Virus record (IMG/VR): IMGVR_UViG_3300010883_000001
Coordinates: 64,001 to 128,000 of that record
Reading direction: 5' to 3' (one strand)
Source of the DNA: a virus
Length of the DNA stretch: 64,000 bases
Positions 8,621 to 31,690 of this stretch are shown in pieces. Every line of letters starts with the position of its first letter. Position 1 is the first letter of the stretch. The notes beneath the pieces were generated by a model that ran no database searches, was not told the origin of the DNA, and saw only the letters and a list, made by a program, of their open reading frames with translations. The position numbers and the translations under genes were made by a program.

Positions 8621-8670
8621 ATTTCATTTCATTTCAATAATTTCATTTCAATATAATTTCATTTCATTTC
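8621..8670 (+). repeat. Imperfect (ATTTC)n pentamer array in the 5' leader
   Basis: atttcatttcatttcaataatttcatttcaatataatttcatttcatttc: 8 ATTTC units in three blocks. Confidence 0.8.
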
Positions 8671-8708
8671 GTTCTACATGTCTAAAAAAACGGAGGAATA
8701 AAAAAGAT

Positions 8709-15118: not shown

Positions 15119-15904
15119 ATGCCAGAAGGACCGGAAGTAAAGTTGTGTGGTGAGCGTTTAGCTTCAAATATTTCAGGTCAAACACTTAAATATATAGAGA
15201 TAATTTCAGGAAGATATTCTAAAAAGACACCTGGCGGAATTGAATTATTTGGAAAAGAATTGCCTACAACGGTTGTAGGTCCTGGTGTTCATGGGAAATT
15301 TATATATTGGATTATGAAAAATAATTATTTTCTATATAATACCCTGGGGTTAACCGGTGCATGGTCTTTGGAACAAGGTCCTTATTCTAGGGTTAAATTT
15401 TCATTTGAGAATCTAGATATTTTTTTTGATGATAAGAGAAATTTTGGCACTCTAAAGTTTGTTAAAGGAAAAGGGAATCTTTTATCAAAATTACAATCTT
15501 TAGGGCCAGATATGCTATCAGGGGACGTTGAAATATCTCTTTTTATTGATAGGCTAAGAGAGAAGAGCTCATGGGAAATTACAAAAGCATTAATGAACCA
15601 ATCCGTGGTTGCTGGGATTGGGAATTATATAAAATCGGAGTCACTATGGAAGACAAAAATTAATCCACACTCTAGGGTTTGTGATTTAGATAACGATACT
15701 TTAGCAGATCTATGCGTTAATATTAGAGATATAATGAGTGATAGCTATAAATCTCAAAAAGAAGGTGACAACTCGTTTAAATTATCGGTATATTCTAGGA
15801 AGAATGATCCTCATGATAATGAGATTATAAAGGAAAAAACAGAGGATGGTAGAACAACATACTGGTGTCCATCCGTACAACATAAAGGGACGATAAATGA
15901 ATAG
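15119..15904 (+). CDS. Fpg/Nei family DNA glycosylase/AP lyase (zincless finger type)
   Basis: N-terminal MPEGPE, HGK, H2TH NQSVVAGIGN, C-terminal GRTTYWCP without a 4-Cys finger. Confidence 0.92.
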   Translation: MPEGPEVKLCGERLASNISGQTLKYIEIISGRYSKKTPGGIELFGKELPTTVVGPGVHGKFIYWIMKNNYFLYNTLGLTGAWSLEQGPYSRVKFSFENLDIFFDDKRNFGTLKFVKGKGNLLSKLQSLGPDMLSGDVEISLFIDRLREKSSWEITKALMNQSVVAGIGNYIKSESLWKTKINPHSRVCDLDNDTLADLCVNIRDIMSDSYKSQKEGDNSFKLSVYSRKNDPHDNEIIKEKTEDGRTTYWCPSVQHKGTINE

Positions 15905-16112
15905 TTTAAAACTTTCTGATGATACGATCGCACAAATTGCAAAAATATTGCAGGTTGCAATTCTTACTGGAACTGACGTGGTGGATAACCTTCGCCAGTT
16001 AGAGCTAGTTACTAGTGAGGACGGCCGGCTAACGATGTCTGAGGATTATGCAAAAAATTTCGAAACTAATATCACCTCGATGTTGGAGGGGATAAGCGAA
16101 GAAAATGGGTGA
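15897..16112 (+). CDS. Hypothetical protein
   Basis: Coupled 71-aa ORF. Confidence 0.6.
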   Translation: MNSLKLSDDTIAQIAKILQVAILTGTDVVDNLRQLELVTSEDGRLTMSEDYAKNFETNITSMLEGISEENG

Positions 16113-16494
16113 TAAAAAAAAGGAGGATATGCTAATCAGCATATTCAGACTACGGGAAGAATTTATGCTAAGGATTAATGAGAAAATACCTGGTGTATAT
16201 CCCCCTTGGCCAGTCGTATTATCAGACAAGGCATCACAACAATCATTAAGAGAATCTGCACTTAAGGGTGTGGAGGAAATGTTTGAAGCATTACAACACT
16301 TAAAAAACTGGAAACCACATAGGGTAACAGAAATAAAAGAATTTAATAGAGAAGAGTTTCTTGAGGAGACTGTCGACGCATTTAATTATTTCTTTTCTTT
16401 GCTTGTTATGATGGGTGTTACACCTGAAGAGTTTTTTAATGCATATGTTAAGAAAGATACTACGATTCATAGAAGGCTAGAAGTAGGTTATTAA
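16105..16494 (+). CDS. All-alpha NTP pyrophosphatase (dimeric dUTPase/dCTPase-like)
   Basis: VEEMFEAL, NWKPH and EETVDAF (ExxE...ExxD) motifs. Confidence 0.75.
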   Translation: MGDKKKEDMLISIFRLREEFMLRINEKIPGVYPPWPVVLSDKASQQSLRESALKGVEEMFEALQHLKNWKPHRVTEIKEFNREEFLEETVDAFNYFFSLLVMMGVTPEEFFNAYVKKDTTIHRRLEVGY

Positions 16495-17516
16495 TGAATA
16501 TTATCGTGACCGGTGCTGCAGGTTTTATAGGGCAAAACCTTACTAAGTGTCTATTAGATTCAGGACATAAGGTTATTGGGATCGATAATTTCTCTACAGG
16601 CGATAAAAACGTTTTTAAAGAATTCTCTTCAGAATATAAGAGCAGTTTTTTACCAATGCCTTTTGACGTAACACGAGAAGATAGTTGGAGAACCATGCTG
16701 ACTGTTGTACACAGGTTTTTTCGGGGCCAAAAGGACATATCAATATATCATCTTGCATGTCCAGCGTCTCCTCCAGCATATCAAAAATATCCTCTTCGTA
16801 CATTGGATACTTCATACTTGGGTACTAGAAACTGTTTAGAGTTTGCTGCATCTGTAAATGCAAAATTTTTATTTGCTTCTACATCGGAAGTTTACGGAAA
16901 CCCGTCTTGTAATCCGCAGTCGGAAGAATATTACGGTGATGTAAATACCGTTGGCCCCAGGGCTTGTTACGATGAAGGAAAAAGGGTCGCTGAGACTCTA
17001 TGTTATGAGTATAATAAGTGTATGGGAACTGATGTGACGATTGTTAGAATATTCAACACGTATGGTCCTGGAATGAAAGCTGATGACGGCAGAGTTGTTA
17101 GCAACTTTATAAATCAGGCAATCACAGGTAAGGAATTAACGATATATGGTGATGGCTCACAGACTCGAAGTTTTTGTTTTGTATCTGATATGGTTGATGG
17201 ATTGATTTTAGCTATGGGATCTGAGTATTTTGGGCCGATTAATTTAGGGAACCCAAATGAGATTACTGTTTCCAAGTTAACAAATATAGTATTAGAAAAA
17301 TGTAATGCACGAAATGCTATTAATTATTACCCATTACCTCAGGACGATCCATGCATCAGGAGACCCAACATAAATAAAGCTAAGTGGTTATTGGGGTGGG
17401 TACCCAAAGTTAGTCTAGATGAAGGTCTAGATAGGACGATACAATACTTTAGAGGTCTTTTACGTGTAGAACCTCAAGAACCATCATATAATTTAAAAAT
17501 TGGTTATGAAAAATGA
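16494..17516 (+). CDS. uxs: UDP-glucuronate decarboxylase (UDP-xylose synthase)
   Basis: TGAAGFIG, HLACPASP, ASTSEVYG, CYDEGKR, RIFNTYGP, DGRVVSNF, QTRSFC and DDP..RRP are diagnostic UXS motifs. Confidence 0.9.
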   Translation: MNIIVTGAAGFIGQNLTKCLLDSGHKVIGIDNFSTGDKNVFKEFSSEYKSSFLPMPFDVTREDSWRTMLTVVHRFFRGQKDISIYHLACPASPPAYQKYPLRTLDTSYLGTRNCLEFAASVNAKFLFASTSEVYGNPSCNPQSEEYYGDVNTVGPRACYDEGKRVAETLCYEYNKCMGTDVTIVRIFNTYGPGMKADDGRVVSNFINQAITGKELTIYGDGSQTRSFCFVSDMVDGLILAMGSEYFGPINLGNPNEITVSKLTNIVLEKCNARNAINYYPLPQDDPCIRRPNINKAKWLLGWVPKVSLDEGLDRTIQYFRGLLRVEPQEPSYNLKIGYEK

Positions 17517-20500
17517 AAAAAACACCCTCAAGATTCGTAGGTCTTCATGCACATTCTGGATTTTCTACATTTGATGGATTAGGATACCCTCAAGAACATA
17601 TTGATTATGTAAAATCAAATGGAATGGACTGTTGGGCACTTACTGACCATGGTCACATGAATGGTTTTGCACATGCTTATTTACATGCTGAAAAATTAAA
17701 AAAGCTTGGTGAGAATTTTAAATTTATTCCCGGGTGTGAAATGTATGTTCATCCGGATTTAGATGTATGGAGTCTAGACTACAAGCTAGCCCGGGCGGCA
17801 AAGCGAGGTGATCATGAGTCGATCACAAAACTTAGACAGCAAAGGGAGTCCATAGTAACCCCTATTCTTGCAGTAACCGATCGCGATGATGAGATTATAG
17901 ATGTTGATATAAATGAAGGAGGTATGACTGTAGAGAATGAGGAGGAGACTAAGTCTGCAAAATTTTATGATCCCGTTAAACGCCGGCATCATTTAGTTGT
18001 ACTACCTAGAACTAGTGAGGGTTTAAAACGTTTATTTTCATTGGTCTCCAAAGGTTATCTTGAGGGATTTTATAGATTTCCGCGTGTAGATTATAAGATG
18101 TTAAAAGAGGCCGCTAAAGGTGGTCATTTAATGCTTAGTACGGCATGCCTAGGAGGCCCCGTCGCATATGAAGTATTCAGGCATTTACAAGAAGTTTCAT
18201 TTAATAATCTTAATGCTTCTCTTTTAGATGATAGATCATTAATGGAGAAGACAATCCTTGGTGTTGGAAATGCATATGGATCACTGTGTGACGCAGTAGG
18301 GCGTGAGAACGTTATGCTTGAGTTACAGTTCAATAAACTCCCAGCTCAACATTTGGTGAATAGAGCTATACTTGAGTATTCTAGAAGAAACAATTTATCA
18401 GATCAATTAATAGTAACTTGCGACTCGCACTATGCAAATCCAGAACATTGGAAAGAGAGAGAATTATATAAGAAGTTAGGATGGTTAAATTATCGTGATT
18501 ATGATCCTTCTTCGTTACCACAAAGTCGCGACGATTTAGAGTGTGAATTATATCCGAAAAACGAAACACAGGTCTGGGATTCATATACAAATACATCTTC
18601 TGGGTATGATTTTTATAATGATGAAGAGATATGTAGCGCTATTGAGAGAACGCATGATATAGCACACGAAATGATAGGCGATATCACAGCCGATAAAAAA
18701 ATGAAGCTGCCGTCATATATAGTACCTCAAGGCACTGATGAAAACACGGCACTTCTAGAAGCTTGTAAAAAAGGATTAATAGAGAAGGGCTTACATGCTA
18801 ACAATGAATATATAGACCGCTTAAAGCTAGAGCTCTCTGTAATACGCAGTAAGGATTTTTCTAGATATTTTTTGACGATGAAGTCAATTCTTGATATTGC
18901 AAGAGAACGCATGTTGATAGGACCGGGTCGAGGATCCGCAGCTGGTAGTCTGGTTGCATATGTACTTGGAATAACAAACGTTGATCCTATAGAATATGGA
19001 TTATTGTTTGAAAGATTTTTATCTGTCCATCGTGAGGGCGCACCAGACATTGATACTGACGTAGGCGATAGGGATCTTCTGATTGATCTACTCAAGGCAA
19101 ATTTTGGTGATCAGAATGTTGTTCCTATTTCAAATTATAACACTTTTAAATTGAAATCATTAGTAAAAGATATATCACGTTTTTATGGTATACCCTTTGA
19201 CGAAGTAAATAAGGCACTGGCACCGGTTGAGAATGACGTAAAAAAAGTAGTCTTTACAAAGGGTACCGACAAAAACCTTTTCGTGTTATTGTATGAAGAT
19301 GCCATTGCACACTCGGCATCATTTCGAAGTTTTATTGAAAAGTATCCTGAGGTAGCTGAACCAATCGAAATTTTATTTAAGCAAAATAAGTCCTTGGGTC
19401 GACATGCTGGCGGAGTAATAATCAGTGAAAATATTCCGGAGCAGATGCCCTTGATACTCGCAAGGGGTGAGCTACAGACCCCTTGGGTCGAAGGGATGCA
19501 TTATAAACATCTGGAAGAGTTTGGGTGGATTAAATTTGATCTTCTTGGATTAGAAACCCTACGAATAATCCAACGTTGTATAGAGCTAGTTTTGAAGAGG
19601 CATGAGGGAAATGAGAACCCGACTTTTGTTGATGTGAAGAAATGGTTTGACCAAAACATGGATCCGAAAGTCATAGATTTTAATGATGAAGAAGTGTTTC
19701 GAAACATATATCATCAAGGAAAATGGGCTGGAATATTTCAGGCTACGCAACGAGGCGCACAGGCATTTTTTAAGAAAGGAAAGCCTTTGAGTATTATTGA
19801 TGTTGCTACGCTTACATCAATTTATCGCCCAGGTCCGTTAAGTGCTAATGTGCATAAGATATATTTGGGATCAAAGGACAATCCAGAAGATATAGATTAT
19901 CAACATGATCTTATTAAACAGGTTCTGGAACCGACATATGGTGCGATAATCTTTCAAGAGCAAGTTATGGAGTTATGCAACGTTGTAGCCGGTTTCCCTC
20001 AGGAAGACTGTGATAAGGTTCGTAGAACAATCATGAAGAGATCTGCGTCTAAGGCAGATGCTATGAAAGCCGAGGCTGAAGCTTTAAAGAACAGATTTGT
20101 TGAGGGTGCTGTCACAAATGGCGTGGCACAGGATGTTGCTAGCGAATTATATGAGAAAATCTTATTTTTCTCCGGATATGGTTTTAATAAATCTCATGCC
20201 GTATCTTACGCAGTTGATTCTTACTATTGCGCATGGTTGATGCACTACTATGAGGAGGAATGGCTGTGTGCTTATCTTGAGGCTATGTCAAGTACTCCGG
20301 ATAAGTTGGCAAAAGCATCTAGCGAGATTAAAAAGCTGGGATATAAGACGGTACCTCTAGACATAAATTATGCTGAAAAGACCTGGACAATATTAGACGG
20401 GAAGAAATTTATGCCATCATTCTTATCATGCAAAGGTATAGGACTAGCCGCAATCGACGAGATTATGAAAAATAGACCGTATAGCTCAGTTGATGATTTA

Positions 20501-21112
20501 CTATGGGATGAATCAGGTAAGTGGCGACATTCAAAGTTTAATAAGCGTGCGTTAGGCTCACTTATTCGTGTTTGTGCATTTGGGTCCATGGGCTTAGTTG
20601 GCGAAAGGAAGGCATTTTCTTCATATAAGCAGATGCACGAAATACTAATAGATAAAAACCAAGATATAAAAAAGTCAACAAGGAAAGATCCATGGAGAGG
20701 TAAAAAAGCAATGACTGAATTGCTGGTTGAATCAGATACTTCAAGCGAATGGACATCTTATGAGCTAGCAAAGAATAGTATTGAGCTGTTGGGATCATTT
20801 AGTTCGAAATTACTAGTGGATGACGAGTTACAAAAAGAGCTACAAAAAAGAGGCATTCACACAATTGATGAATATCACTCAAAAGACCTATATTGGTTTA
20901 TTGTAAAGAAGGCAATCCCAAAGTTGACAAAGAATAAAAAGCCGTATCTACTATTGACAATATCTGGTACTGAAGGATCGGAAAGTCGGATGTTCTACTG
21001 GGGATGGAATGGAAACACAGATATATCAGAGTTTTCAGTTTGTGTGGCAGAAATTGACAGGAGCGATTTTGGATTTTCAACTAGATCCGGAAAGATAAAG
21101 GTAATTAGATAA
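17513..21112 (+). CDS. dnaE: DNA polymerase III alpha subunit (family C)
   Basis: PHP domain (HAHSGFS.FDG, TDHG, CDSH), GRGSAAGS, FERF, PDIDTD, HAGG, KFDLLGL, RPGP, FQEQ, YGFNKSH. Confidence 0.97.
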   Translation: MKKTPSRFVGLHAHSGFSTFDGLGYPQEHIDYVKSNGMDCWALTDHGHMNGFAHAYLHAEKLKKLGENFKFIPGCEMYVHPDLDVWSLDYKLARAAKRGDHESITKLRQQRESIVTPILAVTDRDDEIIDVDINEGGMTVENEEETKSAKFYDPVKRRHHLVVLPRTSEGLKRLFSLVSKGYLEGFYRFPRVDYKMLKEAAKGGHLMLSTACLGGPVAYEVFRHLQEVSFNNLNASLLDDRSLMEKTILGVGNAYGSLCDAVGRENVMLELQFNKLPAQHLVNRAILEYSRRNNLSDQLIVTCDSHYANPEHWKERELYKKLGWLNYRDYDPSSLPQSRDDLECELYPKNETQVWDSYTNTSSGYDFYNDEEICSAIERTHDIAHEMIGDITADKKMKLPSYIVPQGTDENTALLEACKKGLIEKGLHANNEYIDRLKLELSVIRSKDFSRYFLTMKSILDIARERMLIGPGRGSAAGSLVAYVLGITNVDPIEYGLLFERFLSVHREGAPDIDTDVGDRDLLIDLLKANFGDQNVVPISNYNTFKLKSLVKDISRFYGIPFDEVNKALAPVENDVKKVVFTKGTDKNLFVLLYEDAIAHSASFRSFIEKYPEVAEPIEILFKQNKSLGRHAGGVIISENIPEQMPLILARGELQTPWVEGMHYKHLEEFGWIKFDLLGLETLRIIQRCIELVLKRHEGNENPTFVDVKKWFDQNMDPKVIDFNDEEVFRNIYHQGKWAGIFQATQRGAQAFFKKGKPLSIIDVATLTSIYRPGPLSANVHKIYLGSKDNPEDIDYQHDLIKQVLEPTYGAIIFQEQVMELCNVVAGFPQEDCDKVRRTIMKRSASKADAMKAEAEALKNRFVEGAVTNGVAQDVASELYEKILFFSGYGFNKSHAVSYAVDSYYCAWLMHYYEEEWLCAYLEAMSSTPDKLAKASSEIKKLGYKTVPLDINYAEKTWTILDGKKFMPSFLSCKGIGLAAIDEIMKNRPYSSVDDLLWDESGKWRHSKFNKRALGSLIRVCAFGSMGLVGERKAFSSYKQMHEILIDKNQDIKKSTRKDPWRGKKAMTELLVESDTSSEWTSYELAKNSIELLGSFSSKLLVDDELQKELQKRGIHTIDEYHSKDLYWFIVKKAIPKLTKNKKPYLLLTISGTEGSESRMFYWGWNGNTDISEFSVCVAEIDRSDFGFSTRSGKIKVIR

Positions 21113-22200
21113 TGCGGGTCTTAGTAGTCGGAGGAGGTATATTTGGTACCACGATAGCATCAGAACTATCAGAGCATGGAAATGATGTAACATTAATTGA
21201 AAAAGAAAATACCTTGATGACGGCAGCCAGCAGGGTAAATCATAATCGTGTTCATTTTGGCTATCACTATCCTCGTAGTCCAGAGACGGCAAGACAATGT
21301 CTAGACAGCATTCCCAGTTTTTTAATGCATTATGGTGATTCTGTAGTATCGGATTTCCCTAACTATTATACGATTGCTAATGAAGGTAGCTTCGTAACCC
21401 CGGAACAGTTTATTGATTTTTGTAAAGAGGTTAAAATTGATTTCTACGAACAATATCCACCTAAGCATCTTCTTAGAAGAGACAAGCTAGCAGCTAGCTT
21501 TAGGGTAAGAGAGCCTATTTTTAGTACCAGTCGATTAGCACAGCTAGTTAACGATCGATTAGATCGAGCAGGTGTGAACGTTCTTGTAAGGACACAAATT
21601 ACTAAGGCTAAGAAAAATCCTGGAGGTGGATACTCTGTAATGATAAATGGTGCTAGGTGTATATTTGATAAGGTTATTAATGCAACATACGCCGGCCTGA
21701 ATACTGTAAATAAGGTGTTTAATGTCCGGCCTCATGAACTACGGTTTGAGGAGACAGTAGTACCAGTATTCAAGTTCAGTCACACACCTGTTGGGCTGAC
21801 TATAATGGATGGTCCCTATTGTACTATAATGCCTCATGGAAATATTTCGGAAGAGTTTTTACTTTGGCATGTTGATGGCGGAGTTTTATCTCATGCTACT
21901 GACATTAAAAATATTCGTAGGGTTGTGTCATCTGATGAAGAGATCGCGGCTCGTATAATTGAGATGTCTGCTGAGTTTATGCCTTTTATGGAGGGCGTGG
22001 AATTTCTTTCATTGATGAAAACAGTAAAGACTGTCTATGAGAATAAGTATGATGCAAGAATGTCTGAGGTTCATACGTACGACGACAGTCCGGACTTTAT
22101 CTCAGTATTATCTGGGAAGATAATGTGTGCACCTCAGATTTCATATCAGGTTCGAGAATTAGTTAGGGGTAAGAAGTATCACAGGAGTATTTTGGTATGA
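21112..22200 (+). CDS. FAD-dependent oxidoreductase (DAO-like family)
   Basis: VVGGGIFG dinucleotide-binding motif, ASRVNHNRVHFGYHYPRS, VINATY, IMDGP. Confidence 0.8.
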   Translation: MRVLVVGGGIFGTTIASELSEHGNDVTLIEKENTLMTAASRVNHNRVHFGYHYPRSPETARQCLDSIPSFLMHYGDSVVSDFPNYYTIANEGSFVTPEQFIDFCKEVKIDFYEQYPPKHLLRRDKLAASFRVREPIFSTSRLAQLVNDRLDRAGVNVLVRTQITKAKKNPGGGYSVMINGARCIFDKVINATYAGLNTVNKVFNVRPHELRFEETVVPVFKFSHTPVGLTIMDGPYCTIMPHGNISEEFLLWHVDGGVLSHATDIKNIRRVVSSDEEIAARIIEMSAEFMPFMEGVEFLSLMKTVKTVYENKYDARMSEVHTYDDSPDFISVLSGKIMCAPQISYQVRELVRGKKYHRSILV

Positions 22201-22862
22201 TAAAGAATATACTAATTTTTGGTGCATCTGGTTATGTGGCACGTCATTTTAGCGAAAAATATTTTAATCATTATAATATTATTCACTTTGCTAGAGAAGA
22301 TTTTGATTTTTTGAGACCTGATTTTGAAAAATTGGTTGAAAATTTAATCGAGAAACTTCAACATTTACGGCAACCACGACATGGCGGCGTAGATGGGATT
22401 GTGTTTTTGCAAGGAATTAACCCCTCATTTGGAGTAAGTGACATAGATGATAATCAGTTTCATGATATGTTAAGTATAAATTTATCAGTACCACTTCAGG
22501 TTATTAGGCAAATTAAAGACTGGATTAATAAAAGTGCATCAATCACATTTATATCATCCATTGCAAGAAAGAAAGGGAGTTATGATCCGAGCTATGCTTC
22601 TGCAAAAGCGGGGCTGGTTGGACTTCAGCAGGCTTTGTCAAATCATTTTTCTGATATTCGTTTTAATACGATATCACTCGGGTTGGTTGGGGGATCCCCT
22701 GTTCACGAGGGAATGACAGATGATTTTGCCCTTAAACATCTAGATGCCATGGGAGGAAAATTGGTAAAAGTTGATGATGTTTGTAAAGCTATAGGTTTTT
22801 TGATAGAATGTGATAGTATTTCTCGCGCGATTATTCCAATTGATAGAGGGTTTAAGTTATGA
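22197..22862 (+). CDS. Short-chain dehydrogenase/reductase
   Basis: IFGASG, ISS (catalytic Ser), YASAK (YxxxK), C-terminal IDRG. Confidence 0.85.
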   Translation: MIKNILIFGASGYVARHFSEKYFNHYNIIHFAREDFDFLRPDFEKLVENLIEKLQHLRQPRHGGVDGIVFLQGINPSFGVSDIDDNQFHDMLSINLSVPLQVIRQIKDWINKSASITFISSIARKKGSYDPSYASAKAGLVGLQQALSNHFSDIRFNTISLGLVGGSPVHEGMTDDFALKHLDAMGGKLVKVDDVCKAIGFLIECDSISRAIIPIDRGFKL

Positions 22863-23389
22863 GTGATCAAAAGATCATAATCTTTGATGGTCCGGACGGG
22901 TGTGGAAAGACAAATATCGCAGCTGCGTTGTCAAGACTTCTAGATATTCCCGTTTTTAAGAATGAATTTGAATGGGATCATTTTAATCTTGGCTCAAGTA
23001 ATGATTATTTTATTAAAGCAATAGAATATCAGCACCCCTACGTGTTATCTTTCTTAAAGCAAACCAGACATTCAGCAATATTTGATAGGGCTCATCCTTC
23101 TGAGTTTGCATACTCCCGCGTATTTGAGAGAACAACAAGTTGGAGGGCTTTAAAGATGTGTGATGATATGAGTGCTGAAATGTCTGTAAAAATAATTATT
23201 CCCTATCGCACAAATTATGAAAATGTCGATGATGAGTTTGGGGTAAATCCCATAAAGCTAGTAGAGATTGAATCCGAGTATAGAGCATTTGCTAAGTGGA
23301 CCAAGTGTGATGTAATGTGGTTAAATGTTGATGATGAAGATTTAGATAGGGAAATTAAGGAAATCGTTGATTTTTTGGAGATGGTATAA
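22859..23389 (+). CDS. dNMP/thymidylate kinase-like P-loop kinase
   Basis: FDGPDGCGKT Walker A; FDR motif. Confidence 0.85.
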   Translation: MSDQKIIIFDGPDGCGKTNIAAALSRLLDIPVFKNEFEWDHFNLGSSNDYFIKAIEYQHPYVLSFLKQTRHSAIFDRAHPSEFAYSRVFERTTSWRALKMCDDMSAEMSVKIIIPYRTNYENVDDEFGVNPIKLVEIESEYRAFAKWTKCDVMWLNVDDEDLDREIKEIVDFLEMV

Positions 23390-24420
23390 TGAGGGTACTG
23401 TTTAGTTATTGGGGATTTTGTGAGAGCTTTGAAGACTGTAACGAACCGAATACACCTGATGGATCTAGATTCACTAGACCGATGTTTGTTAATGCACTTA
23501 CGATTGCAGGGCACCAGGTAACATCTCTACAAAAAAGAAGAGAGAAAAATGAGTACCCCGGGATTACATATGATCCAGTTGGTTTACCTGATGGTGATAT
23601 TTTATTTATTGAGTGGCGCTGGAAGACGTGGAAAAATTTTGGTGATACTAAATTTGAGAATGATTATGACAGGCAAATCGAATTATTGCAACACTATCAT
23701 GGAGAGGTACCCGTCGTAATATGGGACTGTGATATGAAATTGACGTCTGAGGATGAGAATAGGTGGCCTGAGGCTATCATTGCTGACCCTACAATGGACC
23801 CTAAGCAACTTACCAGAAAGAGGGCTAGGTTACCATTTTCATCAGATCTGAAATTTTTAGTTGAGCCGTATGAAGACCCGGTTAGGTATGGGTATATCGG
23901 GAACAATTACGAGCGAGATGAGATGTTTGAAAAATATTATAATTGTCCCGCAAAATCTCTTAGGCCGGAAGGAATTCAAACATCAGTTTTTGGAAACTGG
24001 CTTCTGCGATCTCCGGAGAGAATGTCTCCTGAACATGTAACGAAGAAATTTCGTAATATTGCGTTTATTGATAGGGTTGGGTTTACTGAATCCATGCAGC
24101 AGTTGAGAAAATTCATATGTACTACACATATCACAAAGCCAGAGTATGCAAAGAGGGGATTTGTCTCGCCTAGGTATCTTGAGAATATAGCAACATGTAC
24201 TCCTTCATTGGTACCTTGTGAGTTTATGATGAATAATATTTTAGGAAATAATTGGATGGCATCAAGCTCAGGCAGTGTTGTCAAGGCTGTAAGATATTTG
24301 AGATGTCTTTTACCAGAAGATCGTGCTGCGGTTGTTGATGAGCAAAGGTATAATTTGAGAAATAACCTGAATGTTGATGTTAAGCAAACAGTTGAGTTTT
24401 TAGAGGGTTTGATAAAATGA
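23389..24420 (+). CDS. GT-B glycosyltransferase, putative DNA/nucleotide-base modifying
   Basis: N-terminal NALTIAGHQVTSL, DILFIEWRW and VVIWDCD; C-terminal YIGNNYER and SPRYLE (R-x-x-E) resemble GT-B donor-binding domains; operon context. Confidence 0.65.
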   Translation: MRVLFSYWGFCESFEDCNEPNTPDGSRFTRPMFVNALTIAGHQVTSLQKRREKNEYPGITYDPVGLPDGDILFIEWRWKTWKNFGDTKFENDYDRQIELLQHYHGEVPVVIWDCDMKLTSEDENRWPEAIIADPTMDPKQLTRKRARLPFSSDLKFLVEPYEDPVRYGYIGNNYERDEMFEKYYNCPAKSLRPEGIQTSVFGNWLLRSPERMSPEHVTKKFRNIAFIDRVGFTESMQQLRKFICTTHITKPEYAKRGFVSPRYLENIATCTPSLVPCEFMMNNILGNNWMASSSGSVVKAVRYLRCLLPEDRAAVVDEQRYNLRNNLNVDVKQTVEFLEGLIK

Positions 24421-25412
24421 AAAAATCAGTATTAATTACTGGAGGTTGTGGCTTTATAGGGGGCAATCTTGTAAAAGCACTATACAATAAGGGATGGGTT
24501 GTTGATGTTGTTGATCACAGTGTAGAGATAGATCCGGATATATTTTCCCATGATGGAAAAAATGTGACGAGAATTTGTCCGGCTGCGTTAATGCCAGCGT
24601 TACAAAAAAGGGATAGAGAAGACAAAATATTAGTAATAACGTCTGATTTTACTGACGAAAATATTTTGAAGAAAATTTCTAATAAAAAATATGATATAGT
24701 TTTTCATATGGCCGCTGAACCCCGAGTGGGGTTTAGTGTTAAAGATCCTGTCTTTACAACTGAAGAGAACTTGTTTAAGACAGTTGTGTTGTTTAAGGCC
24801 TGTGCTGATGCTGGTACAAAGGTTGTATTTTCCTCCTCATCAGCAGTTTACGGAAATGCTGATCAACTACCCACCAGCGAAGATTGCAAAAAGAAACCAG
24901 CATCCCCATATGCATTGCAGAAGTTACATGCGGAGGATTACGCAAGGTTATTTAGCGACTTGTATGACTTAGATGTTGTATGTCTGAGGTATTTTAACGT
25001 ATTTGGCCCCGGGGCTCTAGGCAGTTCTCCTTACGCAACGGCAGTTGCTGCATGGTGCCAGGCAATATATGATGGAAACACATTACGAAGTGATGGTGAC
25101 GGAGAGCAAACGCGGGATCTTGTTTATGTGGATGATATTGTAAGAATTAATATTGCCCTAGGGAAAAGTGCTAAAAACTTTAAAGGCGATTGTTATAATG
25201 TTTGTACCGGTAAGTCATATAGCAATAATTACGTATTATCTAGGTTTAGGGAAAAATTTTCTAATTTAGAGATCGTTTCTGCTCCTGCTCGTATTGGAGA
25301 CGTTAAACATACTTTAGGTGATACCAGTAAGGCAACAAATGATCTTGGATTTGAGGTTGTACATGATTTCGATGATGCTTTAAAGGCAACATGGGCATGG
25401 TGGGGATTTTAG
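24417..25412 (+). CDS. NAD-dependent NDP-sugar 4-epimerase/dehydratase
   Basis: ITGGCGFIG, HMAA, SSSAVYG, YALQK, LRYFNVFGP, GDGEQTRD. Confidence 0.9.
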   Translation: MKKSVLITGGCGFIGGNLVKALYNKGWVVDVVDHSVEIDPDIFSHDGKNVTRICPAALMPALQKRDREDKILVITSDFTDENILKKISNKKYDIVFHMAAEPRVGFSVKDPVFTTEENLFKTVVLFKACADAGTKVVFSSSSAVYGNADQLPTSEDCKKKPASPYALQKLHAEDYARLFSDLYDLDVVCLRYFNVFGPGALGSSPYATAVAAWCQAIYDGNTLRSDGDGEQTRDLVYVDDIVRINIALGKSAKNFKGDCYNVCTGKSYSNNYVLSRFREKFSNLEIVSAPARIGDVKHTLGDTSKATNDLGFEVVHDFDDALKATWAWWGF

Positions 25413-25422
25413 GGGAAAAAAA

Positions 25423-26412
25423 TTGCATATTGTCTCTCATTCGTTTAACGACTGCTATAATCAGTTGGCGAAATATTTGTTAACAAGCGGGGAATATGAT
25501 GTATCCCCTAGAGGCCAGAGGGTTAGAGAATCTTTATGCGTAAGTTTTAAGATTGAAAACCCTAGGGATAGACTAATCTATAATCCGGCGAGAAAATTTT
25601 CTTTCACATATGTTATAGCGGAGATGCTTTGGTATATTTCTGGAAATAATAAAACGTCGTGGATATCTCATTATTCTAAATTTTGGAATAAAATATCTGA
25701 TGATGGTAAGACGGCCAACTCTGCATATGGTGCTAGGATATTTGAGAAAAATGAAAGAATCGCAGGATCCCAATTTATTCAGTGGGATTTTATAAAGGAG
25801 GAGTTAAGAAAAGATCCGGATTCTAGAAGGGCAATAATTCATATCCGCGTTCCGGAGGATTCTATAAAGGCAAAGCTTGATGTCCCCTGTACAATATCAA
25901 TACAATACTTTATAAGATCTGAAAAATTACATTGCATAGTCAATATGAGATCTTCTGACTTAATTTTAGGGATAAGCTACGATATTCCTGCGTTCACATT
26001 TATGCAGGAGATGATGGCAAATGAATTGGGGGTTGATGTAGGCTCTTATATGCATGTCAGTAATTCATTGCATGTATACGAGAGACATTTTGATATGCTA
26101 GAAAAGATAGCATCAACAGAAAATATTAATAAGTCTTATTCATTAAGTTCAGGAGCTAGAAAACTTAAATTACCACAGGGTGATCTACCCATATATAGTT
26201 TAATGCAGTTTGAGGACGCTATGCGAAAAACCACCCATAATAAAACCGCATTAGATTTATTAGATTCATCGATTTGTTTATTCGATGATTATTGGAATGA
26301 TTGGCTACGAGCGCTAGCAGCGCATAGGGTTCTTAAAAATGGTGATAAACATCTTCACGATAATATATTATATAGGTGTGATCGCTTGAGGGGGTGTTAT
26401 GAGAGATCCTGA
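25423..26412 (+). CDS. Thymidylate-synthase homologue of dCMP-modifying type (dCMP hydroxymethylase-like)
   Basis: SAYG, DSRRA, PCT (Cys156), RSSDLILGISYD (Asp187), SLHVYERH; Asp where ThyA has Asn177. Confidence 0.85.
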   Translation: MHIVSHSFNDCYNQLAKYLLTSGEYDVSPRGQRVRESLCVSFKIENPRDRLIYNPARKFSFTYVIAEMLWYISGNNKTSWISHYSKFWNKISDDGKTANSAYGARIFEKNERIAGSQFIQWDFIKEELRKDPDSRRAIIHIRVPEDSIKAKLDVPCTISIQYFIRSEKLHCIVNMRSSDLILGISYDIPAFTFMQEMMANELGVDVGSYMHVSNSLHVYERHFDMLEKIASTENINKSYSLSSGARKLKLPQGDLPIYSLMQFEDAMRKTTHNKTALDLLDSSICLFDDYWNDWLRALAAHRVLKNGDKHLHDNILYRCDRLRGCYERS

Positions 26413-26992
26413 GTTTATAATTTTTACTGGACCAATGTTCGGTTCAAAAACTACTAGAATGCTAGCATGTGTAGACAGGTATAGATACCAGCATAAACTT
26501 ATTGCAGTATTTAAACCAAAGATAGATGATAGATACGAGACTGATAAAATTAAAACACATTCAGGTTTGTCTATACAGGCGCACTGCGTCGAGTCAGGTT
26601 ACGAGATTGCTGATATTATAACTAAAATTGAGCTAGCGTCACTTAAGAGAGTTGACGTGATTGCCGTTGATGAAGCTTTTATGATTGAAGGATGCTCGTC
26701 GACGCTAATTCAATTGTTTAAAACAGGATACACAATCGTAATTGCGTCGATACAATTATCGGCCACCGGCGAGCCATTTAATGAAATTAAAGATATTCTG
26801 CCATGGGGGACAAGAGTTGAGGTTTGTCCAGCAGTATGTTCTAGGACTGGCGAAGATGCATATTATACATTTAGAAAAGTTGAATGTTTGGATAGCATTA
26901 TGATTGGAGGTTCTGATATGTATGAGGCCAGGTGTTGGTCAAGTCATCCTGGACTGAATTCCTTGGAGAAATTAAATGATAGAGCCATCTAG
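26399..26992 (+). CDS. tdk: Thymidine kinase
   Basis: GPMFGSKT, KPKIDDRY, THSG, VDEAF, IGGSDMYEARC. Confidence 0.88.
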   Translation: MRDPEFIIFTGPMFGSKTTRMLACVDRYRYQHKLIAVFKPKIDDRYETDKIKTHSGLSIQAHCVESGYEIADIITKIELASLKRVDVIAVDEAFMIEGCSSTLIQLFKTGYTIVIASIQLSATGEPFNEIKDILPWGTRVEVCPAVCSRTGEDAYYTFRKVECLDSIMIGGSDMYEARCWSSHPGLNSLEKLNDRAI

Positions 26993-27830
26993 CGTTGATT
27001 GCGTAATATATCATGCTGACTGTACTGACGGCTTTGGGGCAGCCTACGCAGCATGGAAACTTTTAGGAAACAAGGCAGATTATTATGCGTGTAAGCATGG
27101 CTCAGTCCCACCAGATGTATCGGGTAAAAGAGTTGTAATTCTAGATTTTTCTTTTAATAATGAGATTACAAAAGCAATGATTGACACAGCGGATGGTTTG
27201 ATAGTCATTGATCATCATAAGTCGGCCATGGTAGAATTGCATGATATTACGGATGCTATATTCAATATGAGTAAATCTGGAGCCATGCTAGCATGGGAAT
27301 TTTTTCATCCGGGAAAAGAGCCACCAAAGTTTATTTCGTACATAGAGGATCGTGATCTGTGGAAGTGGGAGTTACCATATTCAAAAGAGTTCGCTGCAGC
27401 TTTTGATATGGTTCCTTTCGAGTTTGAAGAGTTTGAGAAGTTTGAAGATGACTCTGTTTTTGATGATGCTGTAAAACGAGGAAGTTACATACTGGCGTAT
27501 TCAAAAACGGTAGTTAAAAAAGTCTCTGAGAAGGCATCACCAAGAAGATTAAACGGAAAGAGCATATTGGTCGTAAATGCTTCACATTGGATGTCGGAAA
27601 TAGGCGCCAGGCTTTCTCCCGATTGTGATGTTGCAATGATCTGGTATTATGATCATATTGATAAAATGATAAAGGTTAGCTTAAGATCTTTTCATGACAC
27701 CGTTGATGTCTCCGAGGTCGCAAAGAAATTTGGCGGAGGTGGGCATAAAAAGGCTGCTGGTTTTATACTTCCTGGAGATGCTGTCGTGGATGATATTTTT
27801 GACGATGAGGTTAAGAATGAAGAAGTTTAG
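26976..27830 (+). CDS. DHH/DHHA1 phosphoesterase
   Basis: YHADCTDG, LDF, IDHH, EDRDLW, SLRS, GGGGHKKAAG. Confidence 0.9.
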   Translation: MIEPSSVDCVIYHADCTDGFGAAYAAWKLLGNKADYYACKHGSVPPDVSGKRVVILDFSFNNEITKAMIDTADGLIVIDHHKSAMVELHDITDAIFNMSKSGAMLAWEFFHPGKEPPKFISYIEDRDLWKWELPYSKEFAAAFDMVPFEFEEFEKFEDDSVFDDAVKRGSYILAYSKTVVKKVSEKASPRRLNGKSILVVNASHWMSEIGARLSPDCDVAMIWYYDHIDKMIKVSLRSFHDTVDVSEVAKKFGGGGHKKAAGFILPGDAVVDDIFDDEVKNEEV

Positions 27831-28239
27831 GCCTGGATGGGATGCGATTTGGCTTAAGTTTGCGCATCTAATATCTGAGAGAAGTTATGATGATCGGTAC
27901 AAGGTAGGTGCCATTGTAGTTTCGATCGACAATACACAGGTTCTTGCAGTGGGATATAATGGAAATTATTCTGGTGGTCCAAATGAAGCAGACTCAGCTG
28001 AACCAGGCAAATCAGGATTTATTCATGCTGAGATTAATGCATTACTTAAGTGCGACTATAATTATCACAAAGTTAAAAAACTATATGTTACACTATCACC
28101 GTGCATGATGTGTGCTAAGGCCATTATTAATGCCGGAATCTCAGAGGTGATTTATGATGATGAGTATAGAGATACGGCCGGAATTCAGCTTATGAAGGAT
28201 ACAGGAATTGTCGTTAGGAGAGTAAACAATTATTCTTGA
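27817..28239 (+). CDS. dCMP deaminase
   Basis: VGA, GYNG, HAEINA, PCMMC zinc motifs; start moved to MKKFRPGWD. Confidence 0.9.
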   Translation: MKKFRPGWDAIWLKFAHLISERSYDDRYKVGAIVVSIDNTQVLAVGYNGNYSGGPNEADSAEPGKSGFIHAEINALLKCDYNYHKVKKLYVTLSPCMMCAKAIINAGISEVIYDDEYRDTAGIQLMKDTGIVVRRVNNYS

Positions 28240-28311
28240 CATACTTCTGAATCAGTTTTTACTATAAAAAAATAATTTCTATATTTTCTTTTAGTCCTCC
28301 TGTGAAATAAG

Positions 28312-28319
28312 TATAAATA
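28312..28319 (+). promoter_or_regulatory. Possible T4-type late promoter TATAAATA
   Basis: Exact octamer 23 nt upstream of the first gene of the acidic-protein block; AT-rich context lowers specificity. Confidence 0.3.
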
Positions 28320-28342
28320 GCCCAGTATTTTATGGATGTTTT

Positions 28343-30646
28343 ATGAGTAGTATAAAAAACGGTTTATTTAGAGAGTTTGATTTAGAGTATATCATCGAGA
28401 CTAGCCTAAAGTTACGTAGGCTAAGTGATAGCTCAATTATTCTCGAGAACGCGCTAGCCAACAACGATATTAGTGCATTGTTAATGGAGGAGCTAGAAAG
28501 TAAAGACATAGAAAAGCTGAGAAAAACTACTAAGGAAACAAAAAAGGCAGTTGAGCAGATACAGGCTGCCATAGGTGATAAATTACCTAGCCTTAAAGAT
28601 CCACTAGATAGTCTACACGATGCAATAACTGATTCCCTAAAGTTCGTATCAGAGCTTGATTTAGAAAATCCTGAAGGTATGATGGCAAATATTGGGAGAT
28701 TTTTTGGATCTAAGGTTGATATTGCATCTTCATTTCAAGCAGTTTTACAAATACAGACAAAAACAAAACAGATAGCAGATTCTTTAGAGCAAGCAATTCC
28801 TTTAATATTGAAAAATATTGAAGACCTTATTGATGAGACTCAGCAGGATGTTCCTTTAAGTGAGTTAGCTGGAACAGGTGATATTCCGGATGCTAATAAA
28901 ATTAAAGGAGGTGTTCAAAAGGCGTTTAAGGCCGGCGGCGGCGGGTTCTTGGGGAAACTTACCGGGTTTTTGAGAAAAGCAGCAGGTAAATCAAAGCTCT
29001 TAGCCGGTGTAGTTGATCCGGATTTCGATGAGGTCGCTGATGATTTCATGTTACTTTCAATTATACAAATGAAAGAGTTAGAAACGGCCTTAGGTACAGC
29101 TGCAGATGTTGAGATGTTAGATAAGGCTACAACTGAAGATCTTGCCAAGGCAGAGCCTGAAGATTACCAAGCCGTAGCCGCTGATCAAAGCGGATCCGGC
29201 GCAGCACCTGAAAATCCTGATAAGGCTGAGCCTAGACCTGATTTTACGCTTGAAGACTTAATGGCACTATTACAAAAAATGAACCCGCCAGCAGCCAAGG
29301 AGCTGGAGGCGATGCCTGAAGAAGAGCAGGAGGCCGTCGCGGCAGATGACGTAGAGGAGATAGTTGCGGGTGAGGTCAGCCCGGAGGATGCTGCAGAAGA
29401 GGTGTCCGAAGAGGCTGAAGAAGCTGCAGATGCACCAAAGTGGTCAGAGATAGCTAATTCGTTCTTAGATGATCTTAAGTCTAAAGGATTATCCGACAAA
29501 GGCGAAGAGTTTATTAAGAGTTATATGACCGACATTATAAACCAACCTGATTTTGAAGAGGCCGTAGGTGCGTCCCTTAAGTTGAAAGAGTCATTATTTA
29601 TAGGCAGTATTTCTTCATTTTTATTTGAAGAAATAGAATATAAAGATTTAGAAAAGGCATCAAAGGACTCAGCTGAATTTTCATCAGATGAGCAGGCTGC
29701 AGCTGTTACTTCACATCTAGCCACCATGATGTCTGATGCCGGCGTAGCAGTTGCCGGCGACCCTGGTGTAGAATTAACTGATGATATCATTGCAGGAATT
29801 GGCATTGCCGAAGAAGAGATTCCAAAACCAGAAGTAGGCGAAATTTATAATTTCACTACAGGGAAAAACAAAAAGACTTTTGTAAAGATCAACAGCGAAC
29901 CAGATGGAGAATGGGTAAGTGCATCTACAGCTGATGGGAAAGGCTCTTTCAAAAAAGCAAAATTTAATGTAAAGATTACGAGACTTGGCGAAAAGACAAC
30001 CGCTGAAGAAGCGGGGATTAGTGAAAAAGAAGGAGGGGAAGACATGCCAGAAGATCCAGAAGTTGAAAGCTCACCAGAAGAAGAGATTAAAGCGGCGCCT
30101 CAGGATGTACCTCCGGGCGTAGCAATTGGCACGGCATTAGAAGATTGGGAACAGTCACTATCTAAGAGTAGCCAAGAGACCATTAACAGAAAAAATAGGT
30201 TTCAAGCATTAAAAGACGTTATTAACTCCAGTTTAGAGGGAGCAGCACAACGTACTGCCAAGCATGTTAAGACGGCTATTAAAAAGTGGCGTGCTGAACA
30301 TGAGGAGACGCTAATAACATCAAAGAGATTTGCGAAGAAGAATTTTGATACACTATCAGAATTAATTCCCCAGCTGGTCGCAGTGATAATGGCAAAAAAG
30401 ACAGAATCTGCAGGAAATCTAATGACTATAGGAAGCATCCATAGAACAGTTTATAAACATCTGAATAAGAGATTTTATGGAACGAGATATTTATTATCGG
30501 AGATATTGGTTTCTAACGATGCCAGATCTAGCAGTATCAAATCTAATGATGTTAGTAGTACTCGACCTACCGGTAATTTTGATCTTACAAATTCAGATAG
30601 TGATGATTCTACCATGGCTAGGTGGAGAGAATTAGCCGGATTATGA
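28343..30646 (+). CDS. Large acidic protein, probable internal head/core protein
   Basis: 767 aa, Glu/Ala rich; C-terminal MARWRELAGL motif shared with 50714..51847. Confidence 0.6.
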   Translation: MSSIKNGLFREFDLEYIIETSLKLRRLSDSSIILENALANNDISALLMEELESKDIEKLRKTTKETKKAVEQIQAAIGDKLPSLKDPLDSLHDAITDSLKFVSELDLENPEGMMANIGRFFGSKVDIASSFQAVLQIQTKTKQIADSLEQAIPLILKNIEDLIDETQQDVPLSELAGTGDIPDANKIKGGVQKAFKAGGGGFLGKLTGFLRKAAGKSKLLAGVVDPDFDEVADDFMLLSIIQMKELETALGTAADVEMLDKATTEDLAKAEPEDYQAVAADQSGSGAAPENPDKAEPRPDFTLEDLMALLQKMNPPAAKELEAMPEEEQEAVAADDVEEIVAGEVSPEDAAEEVSEEAEEAADAPKWSEIANSFLDDLKSKGLSDKGEEFIKSYMTDIINQPDFEEAVGASLKLKESLFIGSISSFLFEEIEYKDLEKASKDSAEFSSDEQAAAVTSHLATMMSDAGVAVAGDPGVELTDDIIAGIGIAEEEIPKPEVGEIYNFTTGKNKKTFVKINSEPDGEWVSASTADGKGSFKKAKFNVKITRLGEKTTAEEAGISEKEGGEDMPEDPEVESSPEEEIKAAPQDVPPGVAIGTALEDWEQSLSKSSQETINRKNRFQALKDVINSSLEGAAQRTAKHVKTAIKKWRAEHEETLITSKRFAKKNFDTLSELIPQLVAVIMAKKTESAGNLMTIGSIHRTVYKHLNKRFYGTRYLLSEILVSNDARSSSIKSNDVSSTRPTGNFDLTNSDSDDSTMARWRELAGL

Positions 30647-30656
30647 GGTATAATAA

Positions 30657-30998
30657 ATGAAAATCTCAGAGATAGATCTTACTAGAAAAAACAAGGTAAT
30701 TCTGCGTAAAGGATTAAAGATCGTACATTCACCTACCGGGTTGGAATATACTGTACTTGATGTATTTAAAGATTCATCAGGAAAAGTAAAAATTAAGCTA
30801 GCTCCCCCAGAACAACCTAGGGTAGAGCCGATCACATCTACTACGGTGATGCAAGAAGTTGAGCTAGTAAATAATACCCAAGACGATCAGACAATACACA
30901 CCACGCCTGAAGATACTGCCGAAGAAGTCATAGATCTGGAGGACGAGGACGTCCTTGTTTTAGATCAAGGAGAATTGAAAGATTATGAGGTTAGATAA
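30657..30998 (+). CDS. Hypothetical protein
   Basis: RBS GAGG; acidic C-terminus. Confidence 0.7.
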   Translation: MKISEIDLTRKNKVILRKGLKIVHSPTGLEYTVLDVFKDSSGKVKIKLAPPEQPRVEPITSTTVMQEVELVNNTQDDQTIHTTPEDTAEEVIDLEDEDVLVLDQGELKDYEVR

Positions 30999-31690
30999 TG
31001 TCTGATGTTATAAAAAGAGAAGTTGTCGCAGCGATAAGGGCCGTTATTAATAAAGACGATGACGTAAGTCAAGTCTCTGAGTCATATGTAGTTCAACCTA
31101 GGAAATATGCTTTATCAACAGAGAAGATTGGCGAAAAAACAAAGGGTATGATGATAAAGAGATTTGAGGAAGCTGTTGCAAACCTAAACACAGTTTCAGC
31201 GAAGCTTGACACAGCTAATAAAGAAGCTGCTGGAGAGTTTCACTCTGATTTTCGCTCATTAAAATTTGATGAGTCATCGTTACTATCTAGATCTTTTTTG
31301 ACAGCTATGACCCTGGAGAACATAAGCGACTTAGATTCTAAAATAACGATGGATTCTCTTCCTTTTTTACGTTTAGATAGGGATTTTCAATCTTTTGACA
31401 ATTGGCAAAGAGATTTTATTGCGTGTGGGAAATGTATAACGGATGGGTTTGTTGCATGCGGATTAAACGTTTATTTAAAGAAATACACAAACATAATCTG
31501 CGCCGGCCCAACATTCTCAGTTCCAGTTGGGTTTATGCCTATACTGGTTTTGGCAATTGATCCAATAGTAATATCAAGAAATTTTTCTGCAGATAATTCG
31601 CAGTTTATTGCATCAATGATGAAAGAGATAGATTGGGATAAGGTCTCTGATAGAATTAAGAAGTCAGAAAAGTTTTTAAAGATTTTGTGA
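30998..31690 (+). CDS. Fe/Mn superoxide dismutase-fold protein lacking metal ligands
   Basis: VANLN, LENI, LDRDFQSFDNWQRDF, PILVL and IDWDKVSDR align to Fe/MnSOD; the DVWEHAYY position reads AIDPIVIS. Confidence 0.65.
   Translation: MSDVIKREVVAAIRAVINKDDDVSQVSESYVVQPRKYALSTEKIGEKTKGMMIKRFEEAVANLNTVSAKLDTANKEAAGEFHSDFRSLKFDESSLLSRSFLTAMTLENISDLDSKITMDSLPFLRLDRDFQSFDNWQRDFIACGKCITDGFVACGLNVYLKKYTNIICAGPTFSVPVGFMPILVLAIDPIVISRNFSADNSQFIASMMKEIDWDKVSDRIKKSEKFLKIL

Follow-up and report, generated by a model that had tools for sequence, protein, structure and literature searches.

The 64,000-nucleotide stretch of viral DNA analysed here (the window) corresponds to bases 64001-128000 of a linear IMG/VR contig of 145,181 bp (IMGVR_UViG_3300010883_000001). 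It has a GC content of about 0.39, and every long open reading frame (ORF) in it lies on the + strand. We focus on one of these genes, at 25423-26412, which encodes a 329-aa homologue of thymidylate synthase (TS), and on the pathway to which that protein may belong. The gene starts with TTG, has a purine-rich ribosome-binding site of the AGGGGA type just upstream and begins 11 nt past the stop of a nucleoside diphosphate (NDP)-sugar epimerase gene, while its own stop is overlapped by 14 nt by the start of a thymidine kinase (TK) gene. It thus sits within a run of replication, nucleotide and sugar genes (Table 1), and the window also contains thyX, encoding a flavin-dependent thymidylate synthase.

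Fold and domain structure of the TS homologue

Pfam, PHROGs and JGI all annotate the protein as 'thymidylate synthase'. It matches PF00303 (E 3.7e-34), its best PHROG is phrog_5131 (E 6.3e-55, residues 7-310), and the residues of the TS superfamily are all there: C156, E67, R176, S177, H217 and Y219, equivalent to the catalytic Cys, Glu58, Arg166, Ser167, His207 and Tyr209 of ThyA. However, its scores against the NCBIfam ThyA equivalogs are far under the cut-offs (100.6 bits vs 327; 84.1 vs 108.35). The best sequence match in the PDB is MilA, the CMP 5-hydroxymethylase of Streptomyces rimofaciens (PDB 5jnh, 5b6d, 5b6e, 5jp9), which is about 30% identical over its full length (E 3e-41, residues 7-308, with the alignment extending to MilA residue 298); ThyA follows at ~1e-22 and T4 gp42 at 8e-16. 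We also built an AlphaFold2 model from 60 family members (mean predicted local distance difference test score, pLDDT, 92.8). When the model was compared with the PDB by Foldseek, all MilA chains ranked first, with TM-scores of 0.81-0.86 over ~330 columns, followed by ThyA (about 0.55), T4 gp42 and the HY126 dCMP hydroxylase at query-normalised TM-scores (TMq) of 0.53-0.61; the matches include many TS chains.

A preliminary description of this DNA had pointed to a C-terminal extension of roughly 90 residues, and this extension is real. The Pfam match stops at residue 233, and residues ~232-317 form five helices in the model (232-243, 257-269, 273-284, 289-305 and 309-317). Both the sequence alignment and the model match this region to the extra five-helix C-terminal domain of MilA, which is remote from the active site and required for solubility (PMC5175136). 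As modelled, the extension is a domain already described in MilA, and hence no new feature.

Active-site residues

MAFFT alignments to E. coli ThyA and T4 gp42 place Cys156 with C146/C148 and Asp187 with N177/D179. The segment RSSDLILGISYD begins at residue 176, and residue 187, 31 positions past Cys156, is its last Asp; the first Asp of this motif is Asp179, which is equivalent to ThyA D169 and distinct from Asp187. Translation and alignment therefore bear out two earlier assignments, namely that Cys156 in a PCT motif is the catalytic residue and that Asp187 follows it at the Cys148/Asp179 spacing of T4 gp42, at the position of Asn177 in ThyA. The further T4/query pairs are E60/E67, S94/S100, Y96/Y102, R123-R124/R135-R136, D145/D153, T149/T157, S169/S177, D171/D179, H216/H217 and Y218/Y219. 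Ile91 corresponds to T4 Val85 and replaces W83 of E. coli TS, and T157, like T149 of T4, replaces H147. At D187, T157, D153, S100, Y102, I91, D179, R135 and S177 the protein follows the T4 gp42 pattern, and each of these residues is invariant in the 121/121 relatives retrieved from a collection of 5.8 billion proteins. Three controls in the same alignment gave the residues expected of them: E. coli ThyA has L/H/D/N at 143/147/169/177, RB69 gp48 has E at 143, N at 169 and D at 177, as published, and the SP10 dUMP hydroxymethylase has D at 143 and N at 177, also as published.

Many of these positions have been assigned roles, some by experiment and some by statistics. At position 177 (ThyA numbering), Asn selects dUMP and Asp selects dCMP (PMC13326640, PMC5175136), and in metaviromes positions 177 and 147 were the best separators of cytosine-modified from unmodified contigs (PMC8670742). 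Position L143 is hydrophobic in enzymes that transfer a methyl group, and Asp or Glu in those that hydroxymethylate (PMC6400193, PMC13326640). T4 dCMP hydroxymethylase (dCH) relies on Asp145, along with Ser94 and Tyr96, to activate the substrate water, and its D145N variant is inactive (PMC6400193); its Val85 stands in place of the solvent-excluding Trp83 of E. coli TS (PMC6400193, PMC13326640). The residues of a T4 gp42-type dCMP 5-hydroxymethylase are all found in the TS homologue: Asp at N177, Asp at L143 accompanied by Ser and Tyr, and the Arg and Ser of deoxyribonucleotide-specific enzymes (equivalents of Arg126' and Ser167). Five positions (ThyA 143, 147, 167, 169 and 177) separate the enzymes that make dTMP, 5-methyl-dCMP, 5-hydroxymethyl-dCMP, 5-hydroxy-dCMP and hydroxymethyl-CMP, and the TS homologue is a clean case. 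From this signature and its conservation, the predicted reaction is dCMP + 5,10-methylene-tetrahydrofolate + H2O -> 5-hydroxymethyl-dCMP + tetrahydrofolate.

Distribution of the family

We found 856 homologues at E <= 1e-10, typically of 321-345 aa and 45-69% identical to the TS homologue. Those with a source name come mostly from Tara and other ocean samples, and several lie on contigs of 160-308 kb. A scan of IMG/VR returned 113 relatives, whereas none came from a pattern scan of one genome each for 185,579 species of bacteria and archaea. The closest proteins of cultured phages are only 33-39% identical, and a megablast of positions 22000-29000 against 50,697 phage records gave no match. 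We used a quick maximum-likelihood tree for two statements only: the family forms one clade (approximate likelihood-ratio test, aLRT, 91), and E. coli ThyA together with a protein of Xanthomonas phage DoCa10 splits from all hydroxymethylase-like sequences, the present family included (aLRT 97).

A conserved block with a variable slot

Gene context was surveyed by tblastn of the window proteins against 80 related IMG/VR loci (numbered with an L below). A block consisting of DnaE, kinase, a variable slot, epimerase, TS homologue, TK and DHH phosphoesterase holds the TS homologue in 68 of the 80 loci. The dCMP deaminase lies downstream in annotated relatives and was detected by tblastn in some loci only. 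The P-loop kinase stands beside the slot in most loci, and the MazG-like pyrophosphohydrolase gene is kept upstream of DnaE.

In the window, the slot is occupied by a 343-aa protein that has no Pfam or PHROG match and no significant BLASTP similarity to T4 BGT, VPE25 b-gt or Colly_1 b-gt. We folded it with 32 homologues from the related loci (pLDDT 93.3), and its Foldseek matches were all enzymes of the GT-B fold, including T4 BGT (TMq 0.64-0.68) and T4 AGT (0.64); the BGT entry 1nzd (0.68) has the highest TMq among the matches listed. The predicted fold, by which alone it is recognised, identifies this neighbour as a GT-B glycosyltransferase.

Most other loci also have a GT-B protein in the slot. 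In nine loci (L014, at 7524-10020, L039, L042, L045, L057, L061, L062, L064 and L065) the slot instead holds a 609-aa carbamoyltransferase (PF16861/PF02543) and a 226-aa protein with no assigned function, the pair lying immediately upstream of either the TS homologue or the epimerase in front of it. GT-B protein and carbamoyltransferase never occur together in the same locus. Conversion of 5-hydroxymethylcytosine (5hmC, hmC) in DNA to 5-carbamoyloxymethylcytosine has been demonstrated for a phage carbamoyltransferase found alongside Asp177 TS homologues, a PRA-PH-type pyrophosphatase and dCMP deaminase (PMC8670742), and the nine loci probably mark phages of this kind. Transfer of a glycosyl or an O-carbamoyl group needs a hydroxyl acceptor in either case, and this independent evidence favours a hydroxymethyl product over a methyl product.

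Other contents of the slot were also found. Proteins of 430-460 aa without a Pfam match (L018:6663-7985, L038:5022-6314, L079:5171-6550 and L081:5221-6531) are candidates for further, undescribed hmC-decorating enzymes. In L019 a UDP-galactopyranose mutase gene (9029-10147; PF03275, E 1e-77) lies between the TS and GT-B genes, and ~20 loci share the L019 gene order (L020-L029, L032, L035, L040, L044, L073 and L076 by position); the mutase ORF was scanned in L019 only and is taken from a gap of ~1.2 kb in the others. This subgroup suggests a decoration with galactofuranose. The phage of the window adds to the block an FAD oxidoreductase, a short-chain dehydrogenase/reductase (SDR) and two SDR-type NDP-sugar enzymes. 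Taken together, it is tempting, if still tentative, to view the TS homologue as the anchor of a 'plug-in' system of modular design in jumbo phages that abound in the ocean, in which GT-B transferases, 5hmC carbamoyltransferases and Pfam-less proteins are swapped in the slot; hence the hmC in this phage might bear a sugar so far undescribed on DNA, and relatives might contain further undescribed hmC derivatives.

Pairing with ThyX

The preliminary description had held thyX to be intact, and our analysis agrees: the frame has no stops (the gene could also start at the in-frame ATG at 56535), and its product matches PF02511 and passes the NCBIfam equivalog TIGR02170. All five near-complete relatives (270-324 kb), one of which has terminal repeats and is rated 100% complete, have exactly one PF00303 gene and a ThyX match above the cut-off. 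Dihydrofolate reductase (DHFR, PF00186) was not found in these five genomes, and on the 145-kb contig there is neither a DHFR match nor a second TS, the TS homologue being its one PF00303 gene. Such a gene set is self-consistent, since dihydrofolate is released neither by ThyX nor by a hydroxymethylase; a methyl transfer of the ThyA type would be out of place in it.

In one related record (L075; G004:C1:38522-39211) a single 299-aa frame gives a ThyX match split in two, in which profile positions 60-182 come ahead of 13-57. This order could reflect a permuted or rearranged ThyX, or could be a scoring artefact.

Predicted function

We propose that the TS homologue is a folate-dependent deoxycytidylate 5-hydroxymethylase like T4 gp42 (EC 2.1.2.8), carried on the longer MilA-type scaffold, and we put the probability of this at roughly 80%. 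The proposal is based on fold, residue signature, family conservation and gene context. The idea that a cytosine-specific TS homologue stands beside a separate ThyX, as the preliminary description had it, is therefore supported by the residue signature, its family-wide conservation, the best structural relative and the ThyX pairing in the five near-complete relatives. That description had left the product open between hydroxymethyl-dCMP, 5-methyl-dCMP and 5-hydroxy-dCMP. By the published residue rules, together with the neighbouring enzymes that decorate hydroxyl groups, the choice can be narrowed to 5-hydroxymethyl-dCMP as the predicted product.

In the proposed mechanism, Cys156 would attack C6 of dCMP while Asp187 would read the cytosine ring and protonate N3. 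The methylene of 5,10-methylene-tetrahydrofolate would then move to C5, and Asp153, with Ser100 and Tyr102, would activate a water that adds to the exocyclic methylene, yielding 5-hydroxymethyl-dCMP and tetrahydrofolate. The adjacent P-loop kinase and the NDP kinase of the host may bring this product to the triphosphate, the MazG-like pyrophosphatase is a candidate for depletion of dCTP, and the phage DnaE polymerase would incorporate hmC. Once in DNA, hmC would be glycosylated on its hydroxymethyl group by the neighbouring GT-B transferase, from a sugar nucleotide that may be adjusted by the SDR-type epimerases and dehydratases of the phage. The dTMP supply would be separate, through dCMP deaminase and then ThyX, with TK for salvage.

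Alternative explanations

One alternative is a flavin-dependent 5-hydroxy-dCMP synthase of the RB69 gp48, DLP3 gp80 and HY126 AfhB kind, after which a sugar would be joined to C5 directly via an ether oxygen. These enzymes have N177D and an acidic residue at L143 in common with the TS homologue (PMC13326640), which moreover is adjoined by sugar-nucleotide genes and a glycosyltransferase and has the FAD oxidoreductase gene close by. However, the mark of this class is D169N, and 9/9 further natural D169N homologues tested made 5-hydroxycytosine (PMC13326640), whereas Asp179 is kept in all 121 relatives of the TS homologue. Known hydroxylases are also short (~238 aa), their structures 9iqu and 9iqc reach a TMq of 0.57-0.61 against the model compared with 0.81-0.83 for MilA, and the carbamoyltransferase of the relatives is of a type shown to act on 5hmC (PMC8670742). 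We therefore consider this reading very unlikely.

It is equally improbable that the protein is an Xp12-type dCMP C5-methyltransferase and that the phage DNA contains 5-methylcytosine. In favour of this reading, a ThyA becomes a dCMP methylase through Asp at N177 alone (Liu and Santi 1992; Hardy and Nalivaika 1992, as cited in PMC8670742). A methyltransferase of this type would be expected to have a non-acidic residue at L143 and to depend on recycling by DHFR, but the TS homologue has D153, and its Asp153, Ser100 and Ile91 agree with the water-activating set in T4 dCH (PMC6400193). In addition, the five near-complete relatives lack DHFR, the neighbouring GT-B protein or carbamoyltransferase needs a hydroxyl group, and ThyA and the DoCa10 protein pair apart from all hydroxymethylase-like sequences in the quick tree.

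A third possibility accepts 5-hydroxymethyl-dCMP as the product but supposes that much of it is deaminated to 5-hydroxymethyl-dUMP by the clustered dCMP deaminase, so that the modified base replaces thymine. The deaminase does belong to the conserved block. Nevertheless, the retention of ThyX and thymidine kinase speaks for normal thymine, and cytosine is the only base modified in T4, whose genes cd, td, tk and gp42 make up the same set. No enzymes specific for 5-hydroxymethyluracil were seen in the annotated part of the cluster, in a search that was not exhaustive. We give little credence to this route.

MilA itself raises the question of a ribonucleotide (CMP) hydroxymethylase, of the MilA/BcmA kind, that makes a free base or nucleoside metabolite, since MilA is closest in both sequence and structure and has the C-terminal domain in common with the TS homologue. 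The ribose preference of MilA rests on Lys133' and Ala176, and its A176S/K133R mutant loses CMP activity (PMC5175136). In a HMMER alignment of the two proteins, from which the MilA residues were taken, SRR and RSSD of the TS homologue stand where MilA has SKR and RAND; its Arg135 and Ser177 are thus of the deoxyribose type, as in all deoxy-specific enzymes (PMC5175136). The gene lies within a block for DNA replication and deoxynucleotide metabolism and has no MilB-like N-glycosidase in its context. This makes a CMP enzyme highly improbable. Finally, an ordinary second thymidylate synthase converting dUMP to dTMP, redundant with ThyX, is scarcely credible despite the automatic annotation (PF00303 and the PHROG name), given that N177, H147, L143 and W83 are all replaced (D187, T157, D153 and I91), that every ThyA equivalog score is far under its cut-off and that a helical domain takes the place of the ThyA C-terminus that closes the active site.

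Several points weigh against the assignment as a dCMP 5-hydroxymethylase. The residue rules are empirical and derive mostly from short T4-type enzymes and MilA, and in the literature cited the assayed dCMP hydroxymethylases include no long-form phage enzyme. The activity of the enzyme, the content of the DNA and the identity of the sugar are predictions, for an uncultured phage, from sequence, modelled structure and gene context. In the quick tree, which does not contain MilA or BcmA, deep branches are long and, the two splits above aside, unresolved. The parent contig is estimated to be ~52% complete, so that for this phage the DHFR result covers the 145-kb contig only. The putative roles of the kinase and the dCTPase are drawn from weak similarity.

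Comparison with known systems

T4 gp42 (EC 2.1.2.8; PDB 1b49, 1b5d, 1b5e, 6a9b, 6l18) has an active-site signature identical to that of the TS homologue, although the two are only ~25-27% identical overall and gp42, at 246 aa, is without the C-terminal five-helix domain. The gene logic is also T4-like, with a dCTPase-like protein, kinase, GT-B transferase, dCMP deaminase, TK and a separate dTMP synthase. T4 pairs gp42 with ThyA (td) and DHFR (frd), whereas the phage group studied here has ThyX, no DHFR was found in it, and its polymerase is of the DnaE type rather than family B as in T4. MilA resembles the TS homologue in having Asp at both the L143 and N177 positions (PMC5175136, PMC13326640), but it is a bacterial enzyme of antibiotic biosynthesis that prefers the ribonucleotide, and the present family was found in viral contigs only. 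The TS homologues of Yang et al. 2021 (PMC8670742) likewise have Asp at 177 and a non-His residue at 147, and on their contigs a PRA-PH/MazG-like pyrophosphatase and dCMP deaminase co-occur as in the window; where that system has a carbamoyltransferase, our phage has a glycosyltransferase.

The 5-hydroxy-dCMP synthases (RB69 gp48, DLP3 gp80 and HY126 AfhB; PDB 9iqu, 9iqc) share with the TS homologue the TS fold, N177D, the acidic L143 position and sugar-nucleotide or glycosylation neighbours (PMC13326640). They differ in D169N, in binding flavin, in using O2 and in their length, while the TS homologue keeps Asp179 and has the MilA-type extension. A long C-terminal region together with Asp at L143 is also found in the dUMP hydroxymethylase of Bacillus phage SP10, in gp319 of Bacillus phage G and in PHROG 5131. 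SP10 has Asn at 177, so that its substrate is dUMP, and the TS homologue has Asp; phage G gp319 also has Asp at 177, is 33% identical and is uncharacterised. The TS homologue is thus predicted to be of the T4 gp42 type in function and a MilA-type long form with deoxy-type residues in structure.

Earlier publications already cover this class of enzyme, the rules for Asp177, L143 and D169, and the association with transferases that decorate DNA. What is particular to this case is a marine jumbo-phage lineage with DnaE and ThyX, a MilA-like scaffold in a predicted phage dCMP enzyme and an exchangeable slot. Since the enzyme class and the strategy are well known, the value of the finding lies in annotation and ecology rather than in concept. 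The label 'thymidylate synthase' would hide a cytosine-replacement pathway common to several hundred homologues from marine and other metagenomes, phages of 270-324 kb included. If the prediction is true, 5-hydroxymethyl-dCMP is the first step towards sugar-coated cytosine in the phage DNA, and DNA with hmC or glycosyl-hmC would affect sequencing and cloning behaviour, evasion of restriction and CRISPR, and estimates of abundance in viromes.

Neighbouring genes

The features of the window are collected in Table 1. The MazG-like protein is 32% identical to the T4 gp56 dCTPase over 76 aa (pairwise E 7e-7). For the P-loop kinase, phrog_761 is the sole support; neither tblastn against cultured phages nor phmmer against the PDB gave an informative match. 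The true start of the dCMP deaminase is probably at a later, internal codon: as listed, the ORF shares 137 nt with the DHH gene, and the deaminase domain does not begin before residue 49.

Table 1. Coordinates of the TS homologue, its predicted functional sites and other genes of the window
Feature	Position	Strand	Evidence or comment
Fpg/Nei DNA glycosylase, complete	15119-15904	+	PF06831, PF01149, PF21025
All-alpha NTP pyrophosphohydrolase (MazG/dUTPase_2-like), candidate dCTPase	16105-16494	+	Weak PF08761, PF01503; phrog_12184 E 4e-16
SDR-type NDP-sugar dehydratase/decarboxylase-like enzyme	16494-17516	+	
DnaE	17513-21112	+	
FAD oxidoreductase (DAO family)	21112-22200	+	
SDR	22197-22862	+	
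Small P-loop NMP-kinase-like protein, candidate hm-dCMP kinase	22859-23389	+	phrog_761 'thymidylate kinase' E 4.2e-9
GT-B fold glycosyltransferase, candidate DNA hmC glycosyltransferase, 343 aa	23389-24420	+	Predicted fold
GalE-like NDP-sugar 4-epimerase	24417-25412	+	PF01370 E 1.7e-47; best NCBIfam galE 147 bits, under cut-off
TS-fold pyrimidine hydroxymethylase, predicted dCMP 5-hydroxymethylase	25423-26412	+	PF00303, MilA sequence match, model
Codon of Asp153, 3 residues before Cys (= ThyA L143, T4 D145), predicted water-activating residue	25879-25881	+	PMC6400193, PMC13326640
Codon of catalytic Cys156, PCT motif (= ThyA C146, T4 C148)	25888-25890	+	Invariant 121/121
Codon of Asp179 (= ThyA D169), Asp kept, D169N signature absent	25957-25959	+	RB69 gp48 control = Asn; PMC13326640
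Codon of Asp187, predicted cytosine-selecting (= ThyA N177, T4 D179, MilA D186)	25981-25983	+	Invariant 121/121; roles PMC5175136, PMC13326640, PMC8670742
C-terminal five-helix domain, MilA-type, residues ~232-329	26116-26409	+	Model helices; sequence and structure alignment to MilA; PMC5175136
Thymidine kinase	26399-26992	+	PF00265 E 9.3e-33
DHH/DHHA1 phosphoesterase	26976-27830	+	phrog_4771 E 8.3e-76; kept downstream in relatives
dCMP deaminase	27694-28239	+	PF00383 E 4e-19; phrog_174 E 1.8e-44
230-aa protein, weak Sod_Fe_C match	30998-31690	+	E 7.5e-4
thyX, flavin-dependent thymidylate synthase	56571-57296	+	PF02511 E 2.5e-47; TIGR02170 163 bits vs cut-off 87.9; RHRTWS motif

In the tblastn survey of the 80 related loci, the FAD oxidoreductase was matched in none and the SDR beside it in L031 only; these two genes look like a lineage-specific addition to the sugar pathway. 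We considered the FAD oxidoreductase as a flavin partner of the TS homologue and rejected it, as the gene is missing in 80/80 loci and the TS homologue does not carry D169N. In L014 (1342-6885), DnaE is split into several ORFs with intein-splicing domains (PF14890) and is likely an intein-containing polymerase. The 230-aa Sod_Fe_C-like protein is kept downstream of the nucleotide block in most relatives, and the Fpg/Nei glycosylase likewise lies upstream of the MazG-like gene in several of them.

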